Of a stretch of 64,000 nucleotides of DNA, positions 7,957-63,228 are shown one piece after another. This DNA comes from a virus. A model generated the notes under the pieces. It saw nothing but the letters and a program-made list of their open reading frames with translations, made no database searches and had not been told where the DNA came from. The position numbers and the translations under genes were made by a program. The stretch spans positions 32,001 through 96,000 of IMG/VR virus record IMGVR_UViG_3300017963_007659. One strand, 5' to 3'. Every line of letters begins with the position of its first letter. Position 1 is the first letter of the stretch.

Positions 7957-7964
7957 GGTTACCT
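7957..7964 (+). promoter_or_regulatory. Candidate late-promoter motif GGTTACCT
   Basis: Intergenic; the GGTTAC hexamer ends 11 nt before ATG 7974. Confidence 0.45.
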
Positions 7965-11977: not shown

Positions 11978-14900
11978 ATGGCAAGTAAACGAGCACTCTC
12001 CCTCCTGACTGGAGTGAATGAACAAATAACGGACTCCGATGTTCTCGTCACAGGGCGAGTACAGACCGTAGACGGCACAGAAGCTGACCCTGCTCTCAGA
12101 TTTCAGAGTGAAGCAACAGGACTTCTTCTCTCTGCGGCTGGAACCTTGGGATTTAGTGTGGCAGGAACACAGTATCTATCTCTGTCTTCGACAGAGCTTA
12201 CGCTGTCTGCTGGGAACCTGAAGCTTCCGGATACTCCAGGTGGAGGAGCGTCAGGAGTTCTAGAATTCAATAATGCTCCTACGATGCATGTATATGGAAC
12301 TACTTCTATATTCGTAGGTAGTAATGCCGGAAACTTCACGGCAGGTGCTGCCACAAATGTGGTGGTTGTTGGGGACGGAGCCCTAGCAGCACTAACAAAT
12401 GGCAACAATACAATCGCTATAGGAGCTGGGGCACTAGTAAATGCAACCAATGGAGCCCTCAATACAATTGCAATCGGTTCAAATGCCGGATCAGGAATAA
12501 CTTCAAGCTCTCAAACTAACATCGTCATCGGTCATGATGCCATGACCGCTGCGGCGAACTTGCAAGAAAATACAATTGTAGGCAATTCAGCCTATCAAGA
12601 TGGAACGAATGGTAGCAATGTTGTTGTAGGCTACAGGGCAGCCTACAACGCAACAAGCTCAAGTCAAAACGTTATAGCCGGAAGTGAGGCAGTAGAAACT
12701 GGAATTTTGACTGGAGATCGTAACGTAATCTTGGGATTTTCAGCCGCTAGAAATGCCACATCAGCAGGCGATAGTGTCTTTATTGGCAATGAATCTGGGG
12801 AAGGAACTACGACAGGACAGCGCTCTGTAGCCGTTGGGGGAGACTCCTTGATGGCAAACAATACAGGGGATGACAACATAGCTATTGGCTATCGTGCCAT
12901 GGCAGATGATGCTATTGTTGCTATTGGGGCGATGTCAAATAACGTTGCCATTGGCACGGAAGCCCTACGCTACATTGAGGCTGCTACAGCAGGAAACGTA
13001 GCTATCGGCTTCAATGCTCTTCGATTAGTCCAAGGGTCTGGAGCAACTACAAATAACGTAGCTATTGGCTATCAAGCAGGATCTACCGCAGATGGAGCTA
13101 ATAGCTGTGTCTACATCGGCTATCAATCTGGGCTAAACAATGCTACAAGTAACAGACTTATCATTGAAAATAGCAATGATATCACTACTCCTCTTATTGA
13201 TGGAGACTTTTCCGGGAAGGTACTAACTCTCAACGCCAAAGTTACTCCAGCAGACGATGCTGCGCGTTCTCCTCTCAATATTACAGAGAGAAGTGCTGCT
13301 CCCACCTCTCCAGCCACGCATGATGTATACATAGACGATGGAACAAATACAGGGACTGGATCACCAGGATTTAGGAGATATACCGGGGCTGGCTGGGAAG
13401 ACATGGGGTCTCTGGCGGCCAGTGGTGCTCTTCCTGGAATCGAACAGATCCTTTTCGTAAACAAAACTTCGGACGGATACACAGCGGACGGGACTATCGC
13501 CAAACCATACAAGACAATTGGAGCTGCGGTGACCGCTGCCACCGCTCTCACTCCAGCCATCGGCAACAGGATTGCAATCTTCATCTATCCAGGTATTTAT
13601 GACGAGACAGTGTCTACCGCTGATGCTTATGTAGAGTTCATTGGCTTAGACAAAGCCTCCACGATTGTTAATCCTACAACGGGACGAGCACTCAACGTTG
13701 GAGATAGCAACATACGCTTCACTAACTTGACCTTTGAAACGACAGACACCAACAGTGTTGTTTACTTTACGGCAGGGAGCCTCTCGGGTATTGAATTTGA
13801 CAATTGTCACTTCTTTGTGAATAATGCTGCTGGAGGAGCTTTCCAGGTCCCACAAAGCGATGTGAGCATAATCTTTAGAGACTGTCATCTACAGCACGTA
13901 GATACGACAGATGACATATACATCGATAATGCTCCAGCCTACGGCGGTAAGGTAGAGTTCTATACCTGCAAGATTGAGGGTCAGGTGCAGTCTTATGACA
14001 AAGACCTCTACATGTATGGATGTCATCTAGAGTGTCTAGCCTCAAGAAACCTCTATGTGCTAGGCGATGCGAGTAAAATAATCCGTATCGTTGGCTGCAC
14101 AATCGAAACACTGGCAGCACATGGTACTCCTGTCTATATTGATACGGCTTGTGACTGGTCTCTGCTTGGCTGCTCTCTTAAGGCGGCGGGTACTGGAAAC
14201 GAGGTCCAAAGTGGAGGAGACTACCCAGGGACAGTGAAAAATTGTGCCATGGAAATTGGCATGGCATCCTCTGTTCGCCTTCTATCTCCAATCCGAAATA
14301 TTGGTGGTTCGGTAGACTTTTATGAGGACTTCCAACAAGCGATTGATTCCATCGATTCTGGAGACCAAGGAATTGTCGTACTACACGAGAATATAACAGC
14401 CACAGAACAAGCAGTAGACTCTGGAGCTACCGTTACCATTAAGGGAAATGGCTACACCCTTACGGCAAGCTCAACATACTGCTTCCGATCAACAGCTTCA
14501 AGCACCTTGATTGTAGACGACCTAAATCTCTCCGGAGGAGGAATAGCTCTCTCCACAACAAGTTCTACAATGAAGCTCAAGAATGTAAATATAGATCAAG
14601 GGAGAATCTCTATTCAAGCGGGTGCAGATGGGAACTCAAAGCTCATCATGGATAGAGTCATCTGTGACAACCCAGAGGCAACCTATCCAGCCCTTGAATT
14701 CGATGACGCAGATGCTTTCGTATATGTATTTGACAGCTATTTGCAGGGGGCCTCTGGTCAGCCTGCAATCCGTTATGATACTGATAACGATAACTTGTCT
14801 ATGGCGAATACCGCCGCGTTCCATGGTGATGGTGGGGCGAATAATCCAATCAGTAACCCAACAGCAGCTACGACCTACAAGAGTCATCACTGTACTTTCG

Positions 14901-18950: not shown

Positions 18951-18958
18951 GGTTATCT
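18951..18958 (+). promoter_or_regulatory. Candidate late-promoter motif GGTTATCT
   Basis: The 12-mer CGGTTATCTGAA is identical to the one at 30690; 11 nt before ATG 18968, which has no SD. Confidence 0.5.
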
Positions 18959-22845: not shown

Positions 22846-23454
22846 ATGTCTAGAAACTTCCCCAAGATTCTCGGTCTCTTGACCTTCCCGGTCATCTTCC
22901 TGTTCTCCATGGTCGCATTTGGACAGCCTTGTCCAGATGTCGACGTTCAAGTAGTCAATGAAGCCGTTGCGCAGCAAGAATGGTGGATGGTGCTTCTCGA
23001 CGCGCTGCTCCAACTCGTAGCGCCCATCGTCATCGGTGTTTTGGGAACCTTGGCGAGCATCGCGATTCGTAAATGGGGGAAGAAGCTCGACGTAGACACG
23101 CAGGACCGCTTCATCGGTCTCACCCAAAACCTCATCTCTTCCGGCGTAGCTTTCGCGGAAGAGCAGGGACGCAAAGCGCTGAAGGTAGGGGAAGCGCAGA
23201 CAGATGGTGCACGGAAGCTCCAACACGCTGTGGACTACATCCAAGAGCAGCTTGAAGAGTCTCGACTCCCTCAGATGGGAACGGAGAAGCTCGAACGTCT
23301 CATTGAGTCCAGACTCCATGCAGAACGTGCGAATCCAACAGGCTCTGTCCCAAGCGACCCTTCAGACCCAGAAAACGTCTATACTATTGAACTTCCAGTT
23401 GAATCCACCACAGCGGAGACAACACCAGAACCAGAACAAACAGACGAGGAGTAA
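22846..23454 (+). CDS. Holin, LL-H family-like
   Basis: TM helix, then GVAFAEEQ...GARKLQHAVDYIQEQL...LERLIESRL, matching the LL-H AV..AEq...G.eK...A....IEa pattern. Confidence 0.7.
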   Translation: MSRNFPKILGLLTFPVIFLFSMVAFGQPCPDVDVQVVNEAVAQQEWWMVLLDALLQLVAPIVIGVLGTLASIAIRKWGKKLDVDTQDRFIGLTQNLISSGVAFAEEQGRKALKVGEAQTDGARKLQHAVDYIQEQLEESRLPQMGTEKLERLIESRLHAERANPTGSVPSDPSDPENVYTIELPVESTTAETTPEPEQTDEE

Positions 23455-30690: not shown

Positions 30691-30698
30691 GGTTATCT
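30691..30698 (+). promoter_or_regulatory. Candidate late-promoter motif GGTTATCT
   Basis: Identical 12-mer to the one at 18950; ATG 30711 has no SD. Confidence 0.5.
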
Positions 30699-36281: not shown

Positions 36282-36722
36282 ATGTCTGCGATTACGATCT
36301 GTAAGTTCTACACCAACCCAAACCCTAGCAGCGACAACAAAAACGAAGTCATCAGCCGAACCCTTCAGAAGATCTCGGTCATTGACCGGCGGTGGAAACC
36401 GGACTGCGGCAAGCGGCTGCCTACAGATGGGGAATTCTGGAAGGTGAAAATCGTTCATGAATTCGGGAGAGCGATGAAAGGCTGCTTCCTTGTTCATCCT
36501 CTGCATAAGGTCTACGACAACGAGTTCAGAACGCTGATTCCTGGCACCTACGATATCGAATCCGAAGAGGGATTGGTTGTTATCACCCCTCACAACCCAG
36601 GATACTGGATCTTGCCGATCGAGCATCGTCTCATCTTATTGAAGCGGTACGACGCCTACGCGGTCATTGTAGACCTCCAGCAGTTTGAGGGGGACATCTC
36701 CTCAATACCTACATGTAAGTAG
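36282..36722 (+). CDS. Hypothetical protein
   Basis: ATG 36282 with AGGAG SD. Confidence 0.7.
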   Translation: MSAITICKFYTNPNPSSDNKNEVISRTLQKISVIDRRWKPDCGKRLPTDGEFWKVKIVHEFGRAMKGCFLVHPLHKVYDNEFRTLIPGTYDIESEEGLVVITPHNPGYWILPIEHRLILLKRYDAYAVIVDLQQFEGDISSIPTCK

Positions 36723-36822
36723 CTACAAGAATCCCCCACAGATCTCTCCTCCTCTCCCTCCCTACTTTTTACCTTGACAACGTCTTCAATATATGAGACA
36801 AAGGAAGAGGTTGGAGGGCAGC

Positions 36823-37278
36823 ATGAGTGACAGAGGACAGCTTCCGGCAGACGCAGTGTGGGCTTTCATCTTCGCAGGCAAGGCGATCTTCACTGTTGAA
36901 TCACCCTCTGGTCTCCACAGGACCTTCAAGGTAGTCAAGGTTCAAGGCGAAGGCTACGACAAGCCGATCTGGACGGTGATGGTTCTTGTAGGTCCTGACA
37001 ACAACACCAATTACAGGAACATCGGCTACATCGTTGGAGACCCTTCGGAAAGGCGTGTCTACTTCAAGGGGAACGCCGCCTATGAACCGAACCATTCCCT
37101 TTTGCAGTCCTTCATCTGGGTTCTCCGTCGTGCCGATGTGGCTAACTTCACAGCGAAATTGGGAACCGCCAAGGTGTTCCATGAAGGTCGCTGTGGAAAG
37201 TGCGGACGACGCCTGACTGTCCCTGGAAGCGTGTCTCGCGGTCTCGGTCCTCAATGTGCCCTCTCCCTCCTTCAGTAA
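36823..37278 (+). CDS. DUF6011 zinc-finger protein
   Basis: C-terminal EGRCGKCGRRLTVPGSVSRGLGPQC is the DUF6011 signature; GGAGG SD. Confidence 0.8.
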   Translation: MSDRGQLPADAVWAFIFAGKAIFTVESPSGLHRTFKVVKVQGEGYDKPIWTVMVLVGPDNNTNYRNIGYIVGDPSERRVYFKGNAAYEPNHSLLQSFIWVLRRADVANFTAKLGTAKVFHEGRCGKCGRRLTVPGSVSRGLGPQCALSLLQ

Positions 37279-37279
37279 T

Positions 37280-37289
37280 CTAGTCAAAG
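37280..37289 (+). promoter_or_regulatory. Candidate middle-promoter motif CTAGTCAAAG
   Basis: Exact decamer, intergenic. Confidence 0.65.
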
Positions 37290-37292
37290 TAT

Positions 37293-37310
37293 GGTAGAAA
37301 GGATTCTACC
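37293..37310 (+). promoter_or_regulatory. RBS hairpin GGTAGAA-agga-TTCTACC abutting ATG 37311
   Basis: Perfect 7-bp inverted repeat with the SD-like AGGA in the loop. Confidence 0.55.
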
Positions 37311-37790
37311 ATGAGCACCAAAGGAACAGTCTCGACTGAGATTAAGATCGATTGGGATGTCGATGCCACTATGAAAGGCGACATTCAGAGAGGACTTGAC
37401 GTTCAAGCGCTCTTTCAAGAAGAGGACATCTTAGGAGTCAGCTTTAGCTTGGCATTTCCTCCACTTATCCCTGATAAAGCCATTACAGGACAGGCTCTCC
37501 GAGACTGGAAAAACTCCTGTCTCTACCTCGCGCTCGACAAATCCGCGAATGACACTACAAGAATGGAAGACTTCGAGATTAGCTGGTCCTCTGGGATGGA
37601 GGGTCTTTGTAACCTCACATCTCCCTGCTGTCATGTCTCCCTGTATTCTTCAGACAAAGGGGTAGTGGCTAGCGGTATCCTCTACGCCCACGACGACGCC
37701 TTCGACCTGTATGAGTTCCTTACCAGAATCATCCAGTGTTTCCCTCCCTACCAAGTCAGCCTGGAAGTAGAACCGCTTCGCAGACCCTAA
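37311..37790 (+). CDS. Hypothetical protein
   Basis: 159-aa ORF. Confidence 0.7.
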   Translation: MSTKGTVSTEIKIDWDVDATMKGDIQRGLDVQALFQEEDILGVSFSLAFPPLIPDKAITGQALRDWKNSCLYLALDKSANDTTRMEDFEISWSSGMEGLCNLTSPCCHVSLYSSDKGVVASGILYAHDDAFDLYEFLTRIIQCFPPYQVSLEVEPLRRP

Positions 37791-37805
37791 CTTTTCGCTC
37801 ACAGA

Positions 37806-37813
37806 GGTTATTT
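37806..37813 (+). promoter_or_regulatory. Candidate late-promoter motif GGTTATTT
   Basis: Overlaps the 5' edge of the RBS-occluding hairpin. Confidence 0.45.
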
Positions 37814-37837
37814 CAGATTGGAGAGCACCAATCTGAA
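37812..37837 (+). promoter_or_regulatory. RBS-occluding hairpin TTCAGATTGG-agagca-CCAATCTGAA
   Basis: Perfect 10-bp inverted repeat covering the GGAG SD and the A of start codon 37837. Confidence 0.7.
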
Positions 37838-38373
37838 TGGCTACCTGCACTTACGACAAAGACTGCTATCTCGTTGTAGAAGTCTACAACCGCACGCTTG
37901 CGAAAGTGCAGTTGGCAGGGAAGTATCTCGCCCCAAAGACGATTACACCCTTCTCTCACTTCATCTTCCAGGAGACACCTGCCTACTGTAATAGGTTGGC
38001 CAAGCTCTTCAAGGAAGGTCGACTCTCAGTTGTTATCAACGATGTCGTCCTCAACTACGAGCAGATTCTCAATCTTTGGGCCTATCCAGATGGTGCAGGA
38101 GGTCCAGCACCTTCTGGGAATCGCTACTACAATCAACCTGTTGTAGGAGTCATAGACGGGGTGAATACGAACTTCACCTCACCGACGAAGTTCATCCACG
38201 CTAACCCAGACACAGAGGTACTTCTCTACAACGGAGTGCGGCTCGAAGAGGGTGCTGGAAACGACTATATCGTCTCCGAGTCAGCTCCAGGAACTGGTTA
38301 TGATTTGATATCTACGAACTTTACACCTAAGACTGGTGACAAGCTGTGGCTTGACTTCACGCCAGCCCCTTAA
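37837..38373 (+). CDS. Virion decoration-type protein
   Basis: 178 aa; C-terminal GVIDGVNTNF...LYNGVRLEEGAGNDYIVSE...P..GDKLWLDF is an Ig-like module common in fibres. Confidence 0.6.
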   Translation: MATCTYDKDCYLVVEVYNRTLAKVQLAGKYLAPKTITPFSHFIFQETPAYCNRLAKLFKEGRLSVVINDVVLNYEQILNLWAYPDGAGGPAPSGNRYYNQPVVGVIDGVNTNFTSPTKFIHANPDTEVLLYNGVRLEEGAGNDYIVSESAPGTGYDLISTNFTPKTGDKLWLDFTPAP

Positions 38374-38392
38374 AATGCGAGGGATTGTCCAA

Positions 38393-38398
38393 GGTTAT
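38393..38398 (+). promoter_or_regulatory. Candidate late-promoter motif GGTTAT
   Basis: Intergenic, upstream of 38440. Confidence 0.35.
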
Positions 38399-38439
38399 TC
38401 TTATAATGAACGTGCTTTCGCTTCGTAGAAGGGGCTATA

Positions 38440-39990
38440 ATGGCTAGAACATTCATCCGACAAGACACACAAATCCGAAATTCGGACGTTTACGACGACA
38501 CCGTAGCTGCTGGCGTGACTATGGAGACTGCCCCAACAGAGGTTGAAGCAGATCTCAACGCGATCCGCTCGCAGTTGAAACGCCACACATGGGCAGACGC
38601 GGCTGGAAACTGGTATGATGACAACCAGACAGCGAACGCGAAAAAGAGAGGTATCGCAGCTCTGAACGTCGACCTTGACGACATCGAAGAGAAGCGCCTC
38701 CTCTTCCGTGCGCAGATCCTCACGGACATAGCAGTACCTGCTGCCCAAGCCTACGTAGTCCTCTCGGTCGCTGGCTCTGAAACGCCGTCTCAGGTCGGTG
38801 CTGTCGGTGCGGTCACCACAGAGGGTGCTGTCGTCGCGTTCGACGCTGGCTTCCCTGCTGCGTCTCTTGTAGAGGTAGCAGGCAGTGACGCCCTTCACCC
38901 CAAGAACCTCTTGGAAATTCGAGATGGCACGACAGGAGACCCGATTCTCTCCTCTGGTCGTACTATCTACGGTCTCCTCCAATGCGAAGCGAACGTAGAT
39001 GGGCAGACCTTCAACGATGTCGCTCAGCGTGTCCAGATCTCCTTCGTGCGTAACAACGCCACCGCAGACGACTTGGAGCAGTGCCCTGCTGGCGACATTG
39101 GTGGTCAGACGATCAACTACTCCTACGTCCGACGAGTCGCCTTCGACAACATCCCGGAAGATGCGTACCTCAGCGGAGCCTTCATCGATGACATCGCGGG
39201 AACTACTGCTACTCGTCAGACCGTCTACACCAACCAGGGTGCAACTCCGGTCGACGTGATCACCAACTCTATCCTCGACTTGGAAGGTGCTGGCCTGACA
39301 TGGGTCATCAGAGATGACGCAGAAGCAGTCCTCTTCCAAATCACAGAAGGTTCGGCGGGTGGTTCGAGTGAGGTCACAATCGGTCCCGACACGGACCTCT
39401 ACGACAACGATGCGATTGACGTCGACTTCGCTTCTGGTGTCCAAGTGGCTTCCGGAACGACTCAGATCGACATCGGTGTCAACGCGGGTCGTATCGAGAC
39501 CAACGGTGCAGCCGACCTGATTATCGACGGTACTCAAGAGCTGCGCTTCGACGATGGGAACCGCACAGGTTCAACATGGGCTGCTGACGTCAAGCTGACT
39601 GAGACGACGGCAGAATGGGACGCCTACGAAGTAGCCTTCGGTGGTGAAGTCTCGCTCTTCAACGCCATCGTGCAAGCGTCCAAGACTGGAACGAGACGAA
39701 CCAAGGTCTACGCCAACTGTACATCCACGACAGCCGCGAACAACGACGTTGGTGGTGTTGGTGGTGGCGCAAACCTCGACGCGCAGCTCCCTGACATGTC
39801 GGCAGGTGCCTTCCTGACGGACTATGACACCTATCTGAATGGTGAGCTTCTCCGTCCAGGCGCAGACGCTGCGGCAAACAACGACTACTACCCAGGAACC
39901 TCCTTGGTCAACGGGCAGCTCATGTTTGAGTTCTCCGTAAAGGTCAACGATGTTCTCTGCGTCATCGCCTACGATGCTGATGACGTCTAA
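38440..39990 (+). CDS. Fibre/decoration protein
   Basis: 516 aa; shares a ~50-aa module with 26566; C-terminal YLNGELLRPG...NDYY Ig-like module. Confidence 0.65.
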   Translation: MARTFIRQDTQIRNSDVYDDTVAAGVTMETAPTEVEADLNAIRSQLKRHTWADAAGNWYDDNQTANAKKRGIAALNVDLDDIEEKRLLFRAQILTDIAVPAAQAYVVLSVAGSETPSQVGAVGAVTTEGAVVAFDAGFPAASLVEVAGSDALHPKNLLEIRDGTTGDPILSSGRTIYGLLQCEANVDGQTFNDVAQRVQISFVRNNATADDLEQCPAGDIGGQTINYSYVRRVAFDNIPEDAYLSGAFIDDIAGTTATRQTVYTNQGATPVDVITNSILDLEGAGLTWVIRDDAEAVLFQITEGSAGGSSEVTIGPDTDLYDNDAIDVDFASGVQVASGTTQIDIGVNAGRIETNGAADLIIDGTQELRFDDGNRTGSTWAADVKLTETTAEWDAYEVAFGGEVSLFNAIVQASKTGTRRTKVYANCTSTTAANNDVGGVGGGANLDAQLPDMSAGAFLTDYDTYLNGELLRPGADAAANNDYYPGTSLVNGQLMFEFSVKVNDVLCVIAYDADDV

Positions 39991-41700: not shown

Positions 41701-43230
41701 ATGTCTACTTACAAGTTCAGAAATAGCCCTGAGATCCGCACGACAACCGGCTTGGACTTCGGCACACTCGTTCAGCAAGGAAACAGTCTCCTACACACCT
41801 ATGGTACAGCAAACTTATTCCTTGGAACCAATAGTGGGAACTATACCCTAACGGGAACAAACAACGTAGGTCAAGGACGTCAAGTTTGTAGTAACTTAAC
41901 TACAGGGTCCTACAATGTAGGTCTAGGAGACCAGGCACTACAAGAAACGCAGATAGGAACCGGAAATGTAGCGATGGGCGCGTATGCCCTTCAAGGAAAT
42001 TTTATTACCACGCCAACAGGGTCGTACAACGCGGTTGTTGGTACAGAATCTCTTCTTTTCTACACGTCTGCTAGTTATAACACTACGCTCGGATACCGAG
42101 CATTGTGCTACGGAACCACACCAACTGCTTGTGTTGCTATCGGAGGAAATTCAATGCGAGGAGATGGAGTAACTCCTCCGACAGGAAGCAACAATACAGG
42201 CATAGGTGCCGACACTTTATATAATCTGACAACCGGCTCCAAAAATGTAGCAGTAGGCTACTTCGCTATGAGGTCTATAGGAGGCGGCCTAGAAAATGTG
42301 GCAGTAGGTTCCAATGCACTTCAAGATACTACCGGAAATCGAAACGTCGGCGTAGGACAAGAGTCTCTCACCTTCAACCAAGGTGGCGCTCAAAATGTAG
42401 CTATAGGATACGTCTCCTTAGCTAACAACCGTTCTGGGGACGATAACGTAGCTGTAGGATTCGATACCATTCGATATTCACGAACAACAGATGGAAATAC
42501 AGCAGTAGGCACTTCTTCTCTTCGAGGAAATACAGGTACAATCCCCACAGGAGTACGAAACTGCGCTATGGGATTCAGTGCAGCAGAAGACTACACAACA
42601 GCATCAGACATGGTCGCTATCGGTCATAATTCTCTTCTATTGATAAACACTGGTAGTACAAATACGGCACTTGGTTCAGGATCAGGACACGACCTAGTCA
42701 CCGGGTCTGGAAATGTATTTTTAGGGTACCAAGCAGGATATTCTGAGACGGGATCGAACACACTGTATATCTCGAACTCGAATACAGCCACTCCCCTTAT
42801 CTACGGGAACTTCGCTACCCCAGCAGCTACGATCAATGGAGACCTGACAGTAACCGAAGAGTTCATCTTTGAGATGGGCGCAGACAACGCCTCGACAGGA
42901 ACGCTGAATGACGTATCTACAGCAGGTACTTCCTTCATGCGTTTCACGGGGGCTGGGACTGTCTACATCACAGGATTTGCGAATGGTGTAGACGGGAAGA
43001 CTCTAACTATCGTCAATCGCACAGGATATGACCTCACTTTGGAGAATGAGAATGCAGGATCTGTAGCCGCCAACCGTATTATCACAGGGAAGAGTGCCTC
43101 CATGGTCTTATTGAATGGGGCGGCTATTTCTTTACAGTATGATGCTACCACAGCACGTTGGAATGCTTGTGGGGATAGCAGTAGCGGAGAAAACATCAGC
43201 ATGAAGTCTCGAAGCTGGATGGGGTTCTAG
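41701..43230 (+). CDS. Tail fibre with YadA/Hep-Hag head repeats
   Basis: About 20 N.A.G..AL repeats; shares H.YGT..F.G and N.L.I.NSN..TPLI.G.F with 11978. Confidence 0.75.
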   Translation: MSTYKFRNSPEIRTTTGLDFGTLVQQGNSLLHTYGTANLFLGTNSGNYTLTGTNNVGQGRQVCSNLTTGSYNVGLGDQALQETQIGTGNVAMGAYALQGNFITTPTGSYNAVVGTESLLFYTSASYNTTLGYRALCYGTTPTACVAIGGNSMRGDGVTPPTGSNNTGIGADTLYNLTTGSKNVAVGYFAMRSIGGGLENVAVGSNALQDTTGNRNVGVGQESLTFNQGGAQNVAIGYVSLANNRSGDDNVAVGFDTIRYSRTTDGNTAVGTSSLRGNTGTIPTGVRNCAMGFSAAEDYTTASDMVAIGHNSLLLINTGSTNTALGSGSGHDLVTGSGNVFLGYQAGYSETGSNTLYISNSNTATPLIYGNFATPAATINGDLTVTEEFIFEMGADNASTGTLNDVSTAGTSFMRFTGAGTVYITGFANGVDGKTLTIVNRTGYDLTLENENAGSVAANRIITGKSASMVLLNGAAISLQYDATTARWNACGDSSSGENISMKSRSWMGF

Positions 43231-48689: not shown

Positions 48690-49103
48690 ATGGCATGCTG
48701 CCGTCGATCCCCGAAGAGTACTACAATACTACAGCAAGTAGCTTCTAAACGACGGTCAGTGGGCGTTATAACCCCCAAGCAACCCCTGTTCAAACCTGAC
48801 CGTCGAGTATCCCCTACAGCAATGAAACCCAGCGCTTCAATCCTGTGTAAGCACTTCGAGAAGAAGGGCGCAGAGCTTCTTGTAGATGTGACTCCGGAGC
48901 GGAAGATCCTCTTCCAAGCCTCTGGAAGCACGTTCGATCTAGAGGAGAACATTGAGCTTTATGGATGCACTGGAAAGGTACCTACCTTCGTCAAAGCTAT
49001 CAGGCGCAACCTCAACAAATTGGAGGTAGCCCCTACCTCCAAGAGGATAGCCCTAGGGGAGCTACTCGCTGCTACAATCGAGCTTCTCAAGAAAGAAGCA
49101 TGA
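48690..49103 (+). CDS. Basic hypothetical protein
   Basis: 137-aa ORF. Confidence 0.55.
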   Translation: MACCRRSPKSTTILQQVASKRRSVGVITPKQPLFKPDRRVSPTAMKPSASILCKHFEKKGAELLVDVTPERKILFQASGSTFDLEENIELYGCTGKVPTFVKAIRRNLNKLEVAPTSKRIALGELLAATIELLKKEA

Positions 49104-59453: not shown

Positions 59454-59463
59454 CTTTGACTAG
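59454..59463 (-). promoter_or_regulatory. Candidate middle-promoter motif CTAGTCAAAG
   Basis: Exact decamer 6 nt before ATG 59447; shares 19 identical bp with 62801-62819. Confidence 0.65.
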
Positions 59464-62803: not shown

Positions 62804-63228
62804 ACCCTACTTTGACTAGGTTTCTCCGCAGACTGGACAAGAAAGGGCCTCACTTTTAGGCGCTTCCAGATGGTTGGGAATCTTTCCTCAACAAGTTCAA
62901 GCATTTGCTCGAAGGTGCACTCCTGTGCGATGAAGAAGTTCGAGTTGCTGTTGGGACGGTGGTCTCCAGACGTATCCCAGAAGGCAAGACAGGTCCAGAT
63001 AGTGTCACCGCTATTCTTGTAGTGGAGGGCTGCGGCTCCTTCTTTGTATCTGTGGCATTGGTCTGGAGCAAAATTCGCGTCGATATTGTCGAAGGGACCT
63101 ATCCGATTGAACGGAAGAGGGCGCTGATGCTTACACTGACTGACACCAACCTCTTGGTAGTGAGTGCAGTGTCCAGCTTTGTTGTCAGGCCACACACCGA
63201 AGAAGTAGACATCCAGGTCAGTCTTCAT
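62800..63228 (-). CDS. Hypothetical phage protein
   Basis: Start MKTDL at 63228; YFFGVW...AGH...LAFWD.S.D.RP.SNS.F is a recurring family motif. Confidence 0.7.
   Translation of the reverse strand: MKTDLDVYFFGVWPDNKAGHCTHYQEVGVSQCKHQRPLPFNRIGPFDNIDANFAPDQCHRYKEGAAALHYKNSGDTIWTCLAFWDTSGDHRPNSNSNFFIAQECTFEQMLELVEERFPTIWKRLKVRPFLVQSAEKPSQSRV
62810..62819 (-). promoter_or_regulatory. Candidate middle-promoter motif CTAGTCAAAG
   Basis: Exact decamer 6 nt before ATG 62803, embedded in the last codons of the upstream gene. Confidence 0.6.

Follow-up and report, generated by a model that had tools for sequence, protein, structure and literature searches.

Hairpins at two adjacent gene starts and a plausible translational gate in an uncultured large phage

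Gene neighbourhood and promoter-like motifs

The window, i.e., the whole stretch of DNA analysed here (64,000 nucleotides), comprises bases 32001–96000 of an uncultured phage record in IMG/VR, which is 186,314 bp long and estimated to be ~50% complete. No match to the window DNA was found among deposited phage records. A UDG-PolA fusion as well as virion and tail-spike-like genes are present in the window. Within a long plus-strand block, a DUF6011 gene is followed by gene A, gene B, larger genes, and then a gene for a tail-spike-like protein. Two hairpins sit in this block, at the starts of genes A and B. The features of the locus are as follows:

36793–37278, plus strand: upstream gene, DUF6011 with a C-terminal zinc-ribbon-like motif (Pfam DUF6011, 4e-11; phrog_20259)
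37280–37289, plus strand: motif 1, CTAGTCAAAG (YYRGTCAAAG family, preceded by an A-tract), probably a phage promoter, with a predicted start at ~37296
37290–37313, plus strand: hairpin 1, ten pairs by folding (37290–37299 with 37304–37313), loop AGGA at 37300–37303
37311–37790, plus strand: gene A, 159 aa, fast-evolving, with homologues in the metagenomic loci L011 and L010
37806–37813, plus strand: motif 2, GGTTATTT (family GGTTAYYT), probable second-class promoter before virion-block genes, with a predicted start at ~37820–37823
37806–37842, plus strand: hairpin 2, by folding, core 37812–37821 with 37828–37837, loop AGAGCA
37837–38373, plus strand: gene B, 178 aa, conserved phage protein, heading a block that reaches the tail-spike-like gene at 41701–43230

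DNA of relatives was obtained from three metagenomic loci (L009, L010, and L011). Searches of IMG/VR by protein, alignment, and DNA pattern, and of GTDB genomes, returned no further relatives. The DUF6011 gene, the real start of which may be ATG 36823, shares 62% identity with its L011 homologue. Gene A has no match in Pfam or PHROG and no confident lead in the protein atlas. It diverges much faster than its neighbours, its homologues in L011 and L010 being 50% and 27% identical, respectively. Gene B has seven protein homologues with 71–78% identity, and among the relatives' loci it shares 86% identity with L011 and 71% with L010. The conserved N-terminus of these homologues, MATCxYDK, fixes the start of gene B. 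Gene B shows no Pfam or PHROG match, the protein atlas returned viral clusters only, as weak leads, and the AlphaFold model (pLDDT 49) is too poor for use. The tail-spike-like gene at 41701–43230 has PHROG virion/tail-spike matches.

The motif upstream of gene A occurs in 12 exact copies in the 186-kb record, compared with none for its reversed control. Members of the YYRGTCAAAG family are usually preceded by an A-tract and lie just upstream of genes in the sense orientation. The exact motif upstream of gene B is present as a single copy in the window. Of its wider family, GGTTAYYT, 16 of the 27 genome copies are located at most 60 nt upstream of a predicted gene start, versus ~1 expected, and nearly all gene-upstream copies fall within virion blocks. 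Both motifs also precede SD-less ATGs that open real ORFs at a fixed distance. The gap is 6 nt in six cases and 7 nt in two cases for motif 1; for motif 2, it is 9 nt in four of six cases and 10 or 12 nt in the others. Examples in the window are at 59454–59463 and 62810–62819 (minus strand) and at 7957–7964, 18951–18958, and 30691–30698 (plus strand).

The original prediction regarded both motifs as promoter-like, and the fixed gaps bear this out, with eight and six cases, respectively, and no SD-less ATG-ORF at a fixed gap for either reversed motif. From these gaps, transcription starts are predicted at about +7 past motif 1 and at +7 to +10 past motif 2. On the simplest reading, the two motifs are probably two classes of short -10-type promoters. 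The labels 'middle' and 'late' that had been given to these classes rest only on the genes that follow each motif and are not upheld here. The hairpins had also been put forward as independent support for the promoter role of the motifs, an argument that is circular. Neither the Sigma70_r2 nor the Sigma70_r4_2 domain was found in the 186-kb record, which is estimated to be ~50% complete. A search of the record for a T7-type polymerase gave no match, with a control that was equally silent, and a literature search on the motif retrieved unrelated papers only. Outside the window, at genome position 101019–101046 (window coordinate 69019), two divergent copies of motif 1 overlap as a 9-bp palindrome, TACTTTGAC-N10-GTCAAAGTA, suggestive of paired promoters that act in both directions.

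Hairpins at the starts of genes A and B

The core of hairpin 2, TTCAGATTGG-AGAGCA-CCAATCTGAA, spans 37812–37837, and its final base is the A of ATG 37837. An alternative register extends it with an outer stem (37806–37812 with 37836–37842), in which GGUUAUU of motif 2 pairs with AAUGGCU, i.e., the start codon and second codon. The predicted folding energy is -16.6 kcal/mol (z -4.8), and none of 200 shuffled sequences was as stable. ATG 37837 and the GGAG before it were said to be buried together in a perfect 10-bp hairpin. The hairpin is present as described, with the GGAG, 13 nt from the AUG, divided between stem (GG) and loop (AG). When the gene B leader is shortened from the long form to the promoter-initiated form, its folding energy changes from -18.7 to -2.2 kcal/mol. 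RBS pairing in the long versus short leader forms decreases from 0.72 to 0.32 and from 0.67 to 0.37.

A stable, GC-containing stem located 22 nt past the stop codon of gene A could also act as a terminator or attenuator of the gene A transcript. However, no U-tract follows hairpin 2 in the window, L009, or L011, the terminator scan did not report it, and it overlaps the start codon of gene B, so that such a role is hardly to be expected. For either stem, an intrinsic terminator was rejected, with no T-run after either and no entry in the terminator scan. The same scan detected no terminator-like site between genes A and B.

The core of hairpin 1, GGTAGAA-AGGA-TTCTACC, lies at 37293–37310 and adjoins ATG 37311. 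A perfect 7-bp hairpin abutting this ATG had been noted earlier; the sequence agrees, and folding lengthens the stem to ten pairs, nine Watson-Crick and one G-U (-11.4 kcal/mol, z -2.6). Since the stem reaches 37313, it includes the AUG at 37311–37313, and the 4-nt loop consists of the AGGA ribosome site. In RNA begun at 37296, the energy of hairpin 1 changes from -11.4 to -1.5 kcal/mol. The predicted start at motif 1 would fall inside the 5' arm of hairpin 1 (~37296), and that at motif 2 (~37820–37823) would fall where the 5' arm of hairpin 2 ends or past that point. These positions, derived from the fixed gaps, agree with the earlier placement of the starts inside or beyond the 5' arms.

Hairpin 1 is kept in neither of the two relatives that cover its site (L011 and L010). 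In the L011 locus, CTGGTCAAAG stands before gene A; the 34-nt leader that follows contains GGAGG, leads to a GTG start, and shows no significant structure (fold z -0.28). The L010 locus has neither motif 1 nor hairpin 1 there, and its gene A start is close-coupled to the stop codon of the DUF6011 gene. A look-alike of hairpin 1, the only one in the genome, is found outside the window at genome position 148469–148501 (window coordinate 116469). It reads CTAGTCAAAG-aga-GTAGAA-GGAGA-TTCTAC-ATG and matches hairpin 1 both in its stem sequence and in its position relative to the predicted start. The 96-aa ORF that it precedes is unrelated, and a copy of GGTTACCT on the minus strand adjoins the cassette back to back. 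The location of this look-alike in a divergent intergenic region makes co-directional read-through unlikely.

Hairpin 1 is lineage-specific and, as a gate, doubtful. A copied promoter-RBS cassette is at least as likely an origin for it as selection for gating, and for this hairpin the case for a chance or neutral reading is strong. A separate idea, that a mobile cassette is bounded by the two hairpins, was rejected, as the hairpins share no sequence.

Conservation of hairpin 2

Motif 2 is kept in all three relatives, as GGTTATTT in L009 and L011 and as GGTTATAT in L010. Hairpin 2 is kept in two of the three, with folding energies of -15.3 kcal/mol in L009 and -13.5 kcal/mol in L011. Each of these two contains one compensatory change, from G-C to A-U in L009 and from C-G to U-A in L011. 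Besides these, the relatives' stems differ by one U-A pair that has become U-G and by a single pair that is broken. Across the alignment, 96.7% of the cells are paired, versus at most 64% when the partners are slid by one or more columns. With only three hairpin 2 sequences in the alignment, shuffled controls reach this level of covariation in 62 of 500 trials; the signal is therefore suggestive and falls short of significance. Motif 2 and hairpin 2 form a conserved island, while the surrounding intergenic sequence has diverged to the point of being unalignable. Stem covariation had been named as a check on the original prediction; hairpin 2 gives suggestive support in L009 and L011 with the two compensatory changes, and hairpin 1, missing in L011 and L010, gives none.

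These sequences also bear on a DNA-level function, in which the palindromes would serve as binding sites for a dimeric regulator, from phage or host, repressing both promoters. In favour of such operators, the inverted repeats are perfect, and their centres lie a short way downstream of the promoter-like motifs. Nevertheless, hairpin 2 has the only copy of its half-site in the genome, and among the relatives the half-sites change rather than being conserved. Moreover, the relatives pair through G-U and a one-base bulge, which preserves the RNA helix and breaks the DNA symmetry. We therefore consider an operator highly improbable. A repeated operator was rejected as a candidate, the arm sequence of hairpin 2 being unique in the genome.

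Another RNA-level role would be processing or stability: the stems could be cut by an RNase III-type enzyme specific for double strands or act as decay barriers between the messages of genes A and B, whatever promoter is used. The intergenic position, the irregular 15–17 bp helix of hairpin 2, and the lack of a terminator between the genes are compatible with this view. Typical RNase III substrates, however, are longer than this helix, and hairpin 1 has only ten pairs. Neither hairpin matches an Rfam family: covariance-model searching of 36700–38500 against Rfam 15 yielded nothing at E values up to 1. Should the motifs be promoters, the transcripts that they initiate could not include the stems. 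A processing or stability role is an unlikely explanation for the pair of hairpins.

The most distant relative, L010, has no hairpin 2; its ATG lies 14 nt past motif 2 and has no ribosome site. Motif 1 before gene A and hairpin 2 co-occur in the window and in L011, and both are absent in L010. The absence of hairpin 2 in L010 fits the gating model, because a mask would be needed only where an earlier promoter fires just upstream; this comparison covers three genomes. Elsewhere in the L010 locus, at positions 1182–1232, a 516-aa gene is preceded by an extra copy of GGTTACTT and then by a short hairpin extending to the ribosome site. No motif is present in the orthologous window spacer, 38374–38439.

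Proposed gating of gene B and its extent in the genome

The T4 genes soc and 49 have a hairpin that sequesters the ribosome site and carries a late promoter in its 5' arm. For T4 gene e (lysozyme) and I-TevI, long early transcripts fold so as to cover the ribosome site, and an open, well-translated RNA comes from late promoters that lie within the DNA of the 5' strand (PMC3014915). A similar course of events can be proposed for gene B. Hairpin 2 is predicted to pair the gene B start codon and the GG of GGAG, with a 5' arm that begins within the GGTTAYYT promoter motif. RNA entering from upstream could fold hairpin 2, which would result in poor translation of gene B. Such read-through RNA would include transcripts from CTAGTCAAAG before gene A, because there is no terminator-like site in between. 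RNA started at the GGTTATTT promoter, ~7–10 nt past the motif, would have lost the 5' arm, leaving the gene B start open. Hairpin 1, with the same geometry at CTAGTCAAAG, could limit gene A to transcripts of its own promoter. Read-through from upstream and any effect of the hairpins on translation are inferred.

A T4-gene-e-type translational gate is plausible for hairpin 2. The combined reading, in which hairpin 2 gates gene B as in T4 gene e and hairpin 1 is similar but possibly an accident of a copied cassette, is tentative, and we give it somewhat less than an even chance. The hairpin observation itself is confirmed, and the interpretation first attached to it is partly supported. If hairpin 2 works as proposed, T4-style silencing on early read-through RNA would extend to a large uncultured phage that is unrelated to T4 and uses different promoter signals.

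The locus resembles T4 gene e and I-TevI in several respects. By folding, both hairpins pair the translation start region; a short -10-type motif lies in or beside the 5' arm, so that promoter-initiated RNA is predicted to lack this arm; and the upstream genes are co-directional with no terminator in between. Unlike in T4, the phage motifs GGTTAYYT and YYRGTCAAAG are unrelated to TATAAATA, and the starts here are predicted from sequence. A further difference from T4 is that in one of the two cases the gated gene would be of a presumed earlier class and lie inside a virion block; moreover, no harmful activity is known for gene A or gene B. Hairpins that hide the ribosome site are further found in the leaders of Aeh1 mobE and other T4-family homing endonucleases (cited in PMC3014915, PMC2988022). 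As in those leaders, the ribosome site here is hidden by a hairpin and the gene is located within a foreign transcription unit. In contrast to Aeh1 mobE, gene A shows no sign of a nuclease or mobile element, and the relatives do not keep its hairpin.

According to the original prediction, the same logic is repeated over consecutive tiers of transcription. All leaders with either motif that were long enough were compared with 136 control leaders cut at matched distances, using the RBS pairing of the long versus the promoter-initiated form. The motif-bearing leaders are not more RBS-masked than the 136 controls (Mann-Whitney p 0.13–0.95). This lack of excess masking argues against a repeated multi-tier design, and a multi-tier system across the phage is not supported. 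This negative result matters, as it indicates that the arrangement is local, with one conserved case and one doubtful case, and is no genome-wide programme. Pairing between motif and ribosome site recurs in a handful of other motif-2 leaders, namely those of the window genes at 22846 and 24074 and that of a second motif-2 copy at L010:1182; in most leaders it is absent.

Chance or neutral evolution is the likeliest alternative. Under this explanation, the hairpins are two of the ~20 palindromes that chance alone would place in a genome of this length, hairpin 1 having arrived with a copied promoter-RBS cassette. Hairpin 2 would then seem conserved because it overlaps a constrained promoter motif, a ribosome site, and the start and second codons. 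Perfect hairpins of at least 8 bp number 30 in the genome versus 25–30 in shuffled genomes, i.e., they are at chance level, and no genome-wide association was found. The loss of hairpin 1 in the relatives, the recurrence of its GTAGAA/TTCTAC stem in a second cassette, and the three-sequence covariation of hairpin 2 that falls short of significance point the same way. On the other hand, two of the nine perfect stems of at least 9 bp lie on start sites, both at genes A and B, where 0.3 would be expected (p 0.037). These two are the strongest intergenic hairpins, and they end exactly at the start codons of adjacent genes. In addition, two independent double changes preserve the pairing of hairpin 2 while the nearby intergenic sequence is unalignable. 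Taken for both hairpins together, chance is a serious contender, although on the unlikely side.

The fixed gaps recall leaderless mRNAs, which start at the A of the AUG: SD-less ATGs lie at a fixed distance from the motif in eight genes with motif 1 and ~6 with motif 2. Judged from sequence alone, this suggests that many mRNAs of the phage are leaderless or near-leaderless. Translation of a leaderless mRNA is likewise tied to the gene's own promoter. Genes A and B differ in having leaders of ~15 nt and hairpins. A broader reading is that the phage ties translation to promoter choice genome-wide, with many leaderless genes and, where an earlier-class promoter lies directly upstream, hairpins that are built on the next promoter and stop the longer RNA from being translated. 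Being leaderless, the genes would be translated only when their own motif fires, and promoter plus hairpin would form a co-evolving module across at least two promoter classes. We regard this broader reading as improbable. Together, the hairpins and the leaderless-type spacing provide sequence-only start-site predictions for two promoter classes, which would be useful for annotating this phage group.

Two perfect 10-bp hairpins were also observed within coding sequence of the window. One, at 12623–12649, has the sequence GTTGTAGGCT-acagggc-AGCCTACAAC. The other, at 49020–49042, is TTGGAGGTAG-ccc-CTACCTCCAA and contains a GGAGG located 117 nt before the next start.
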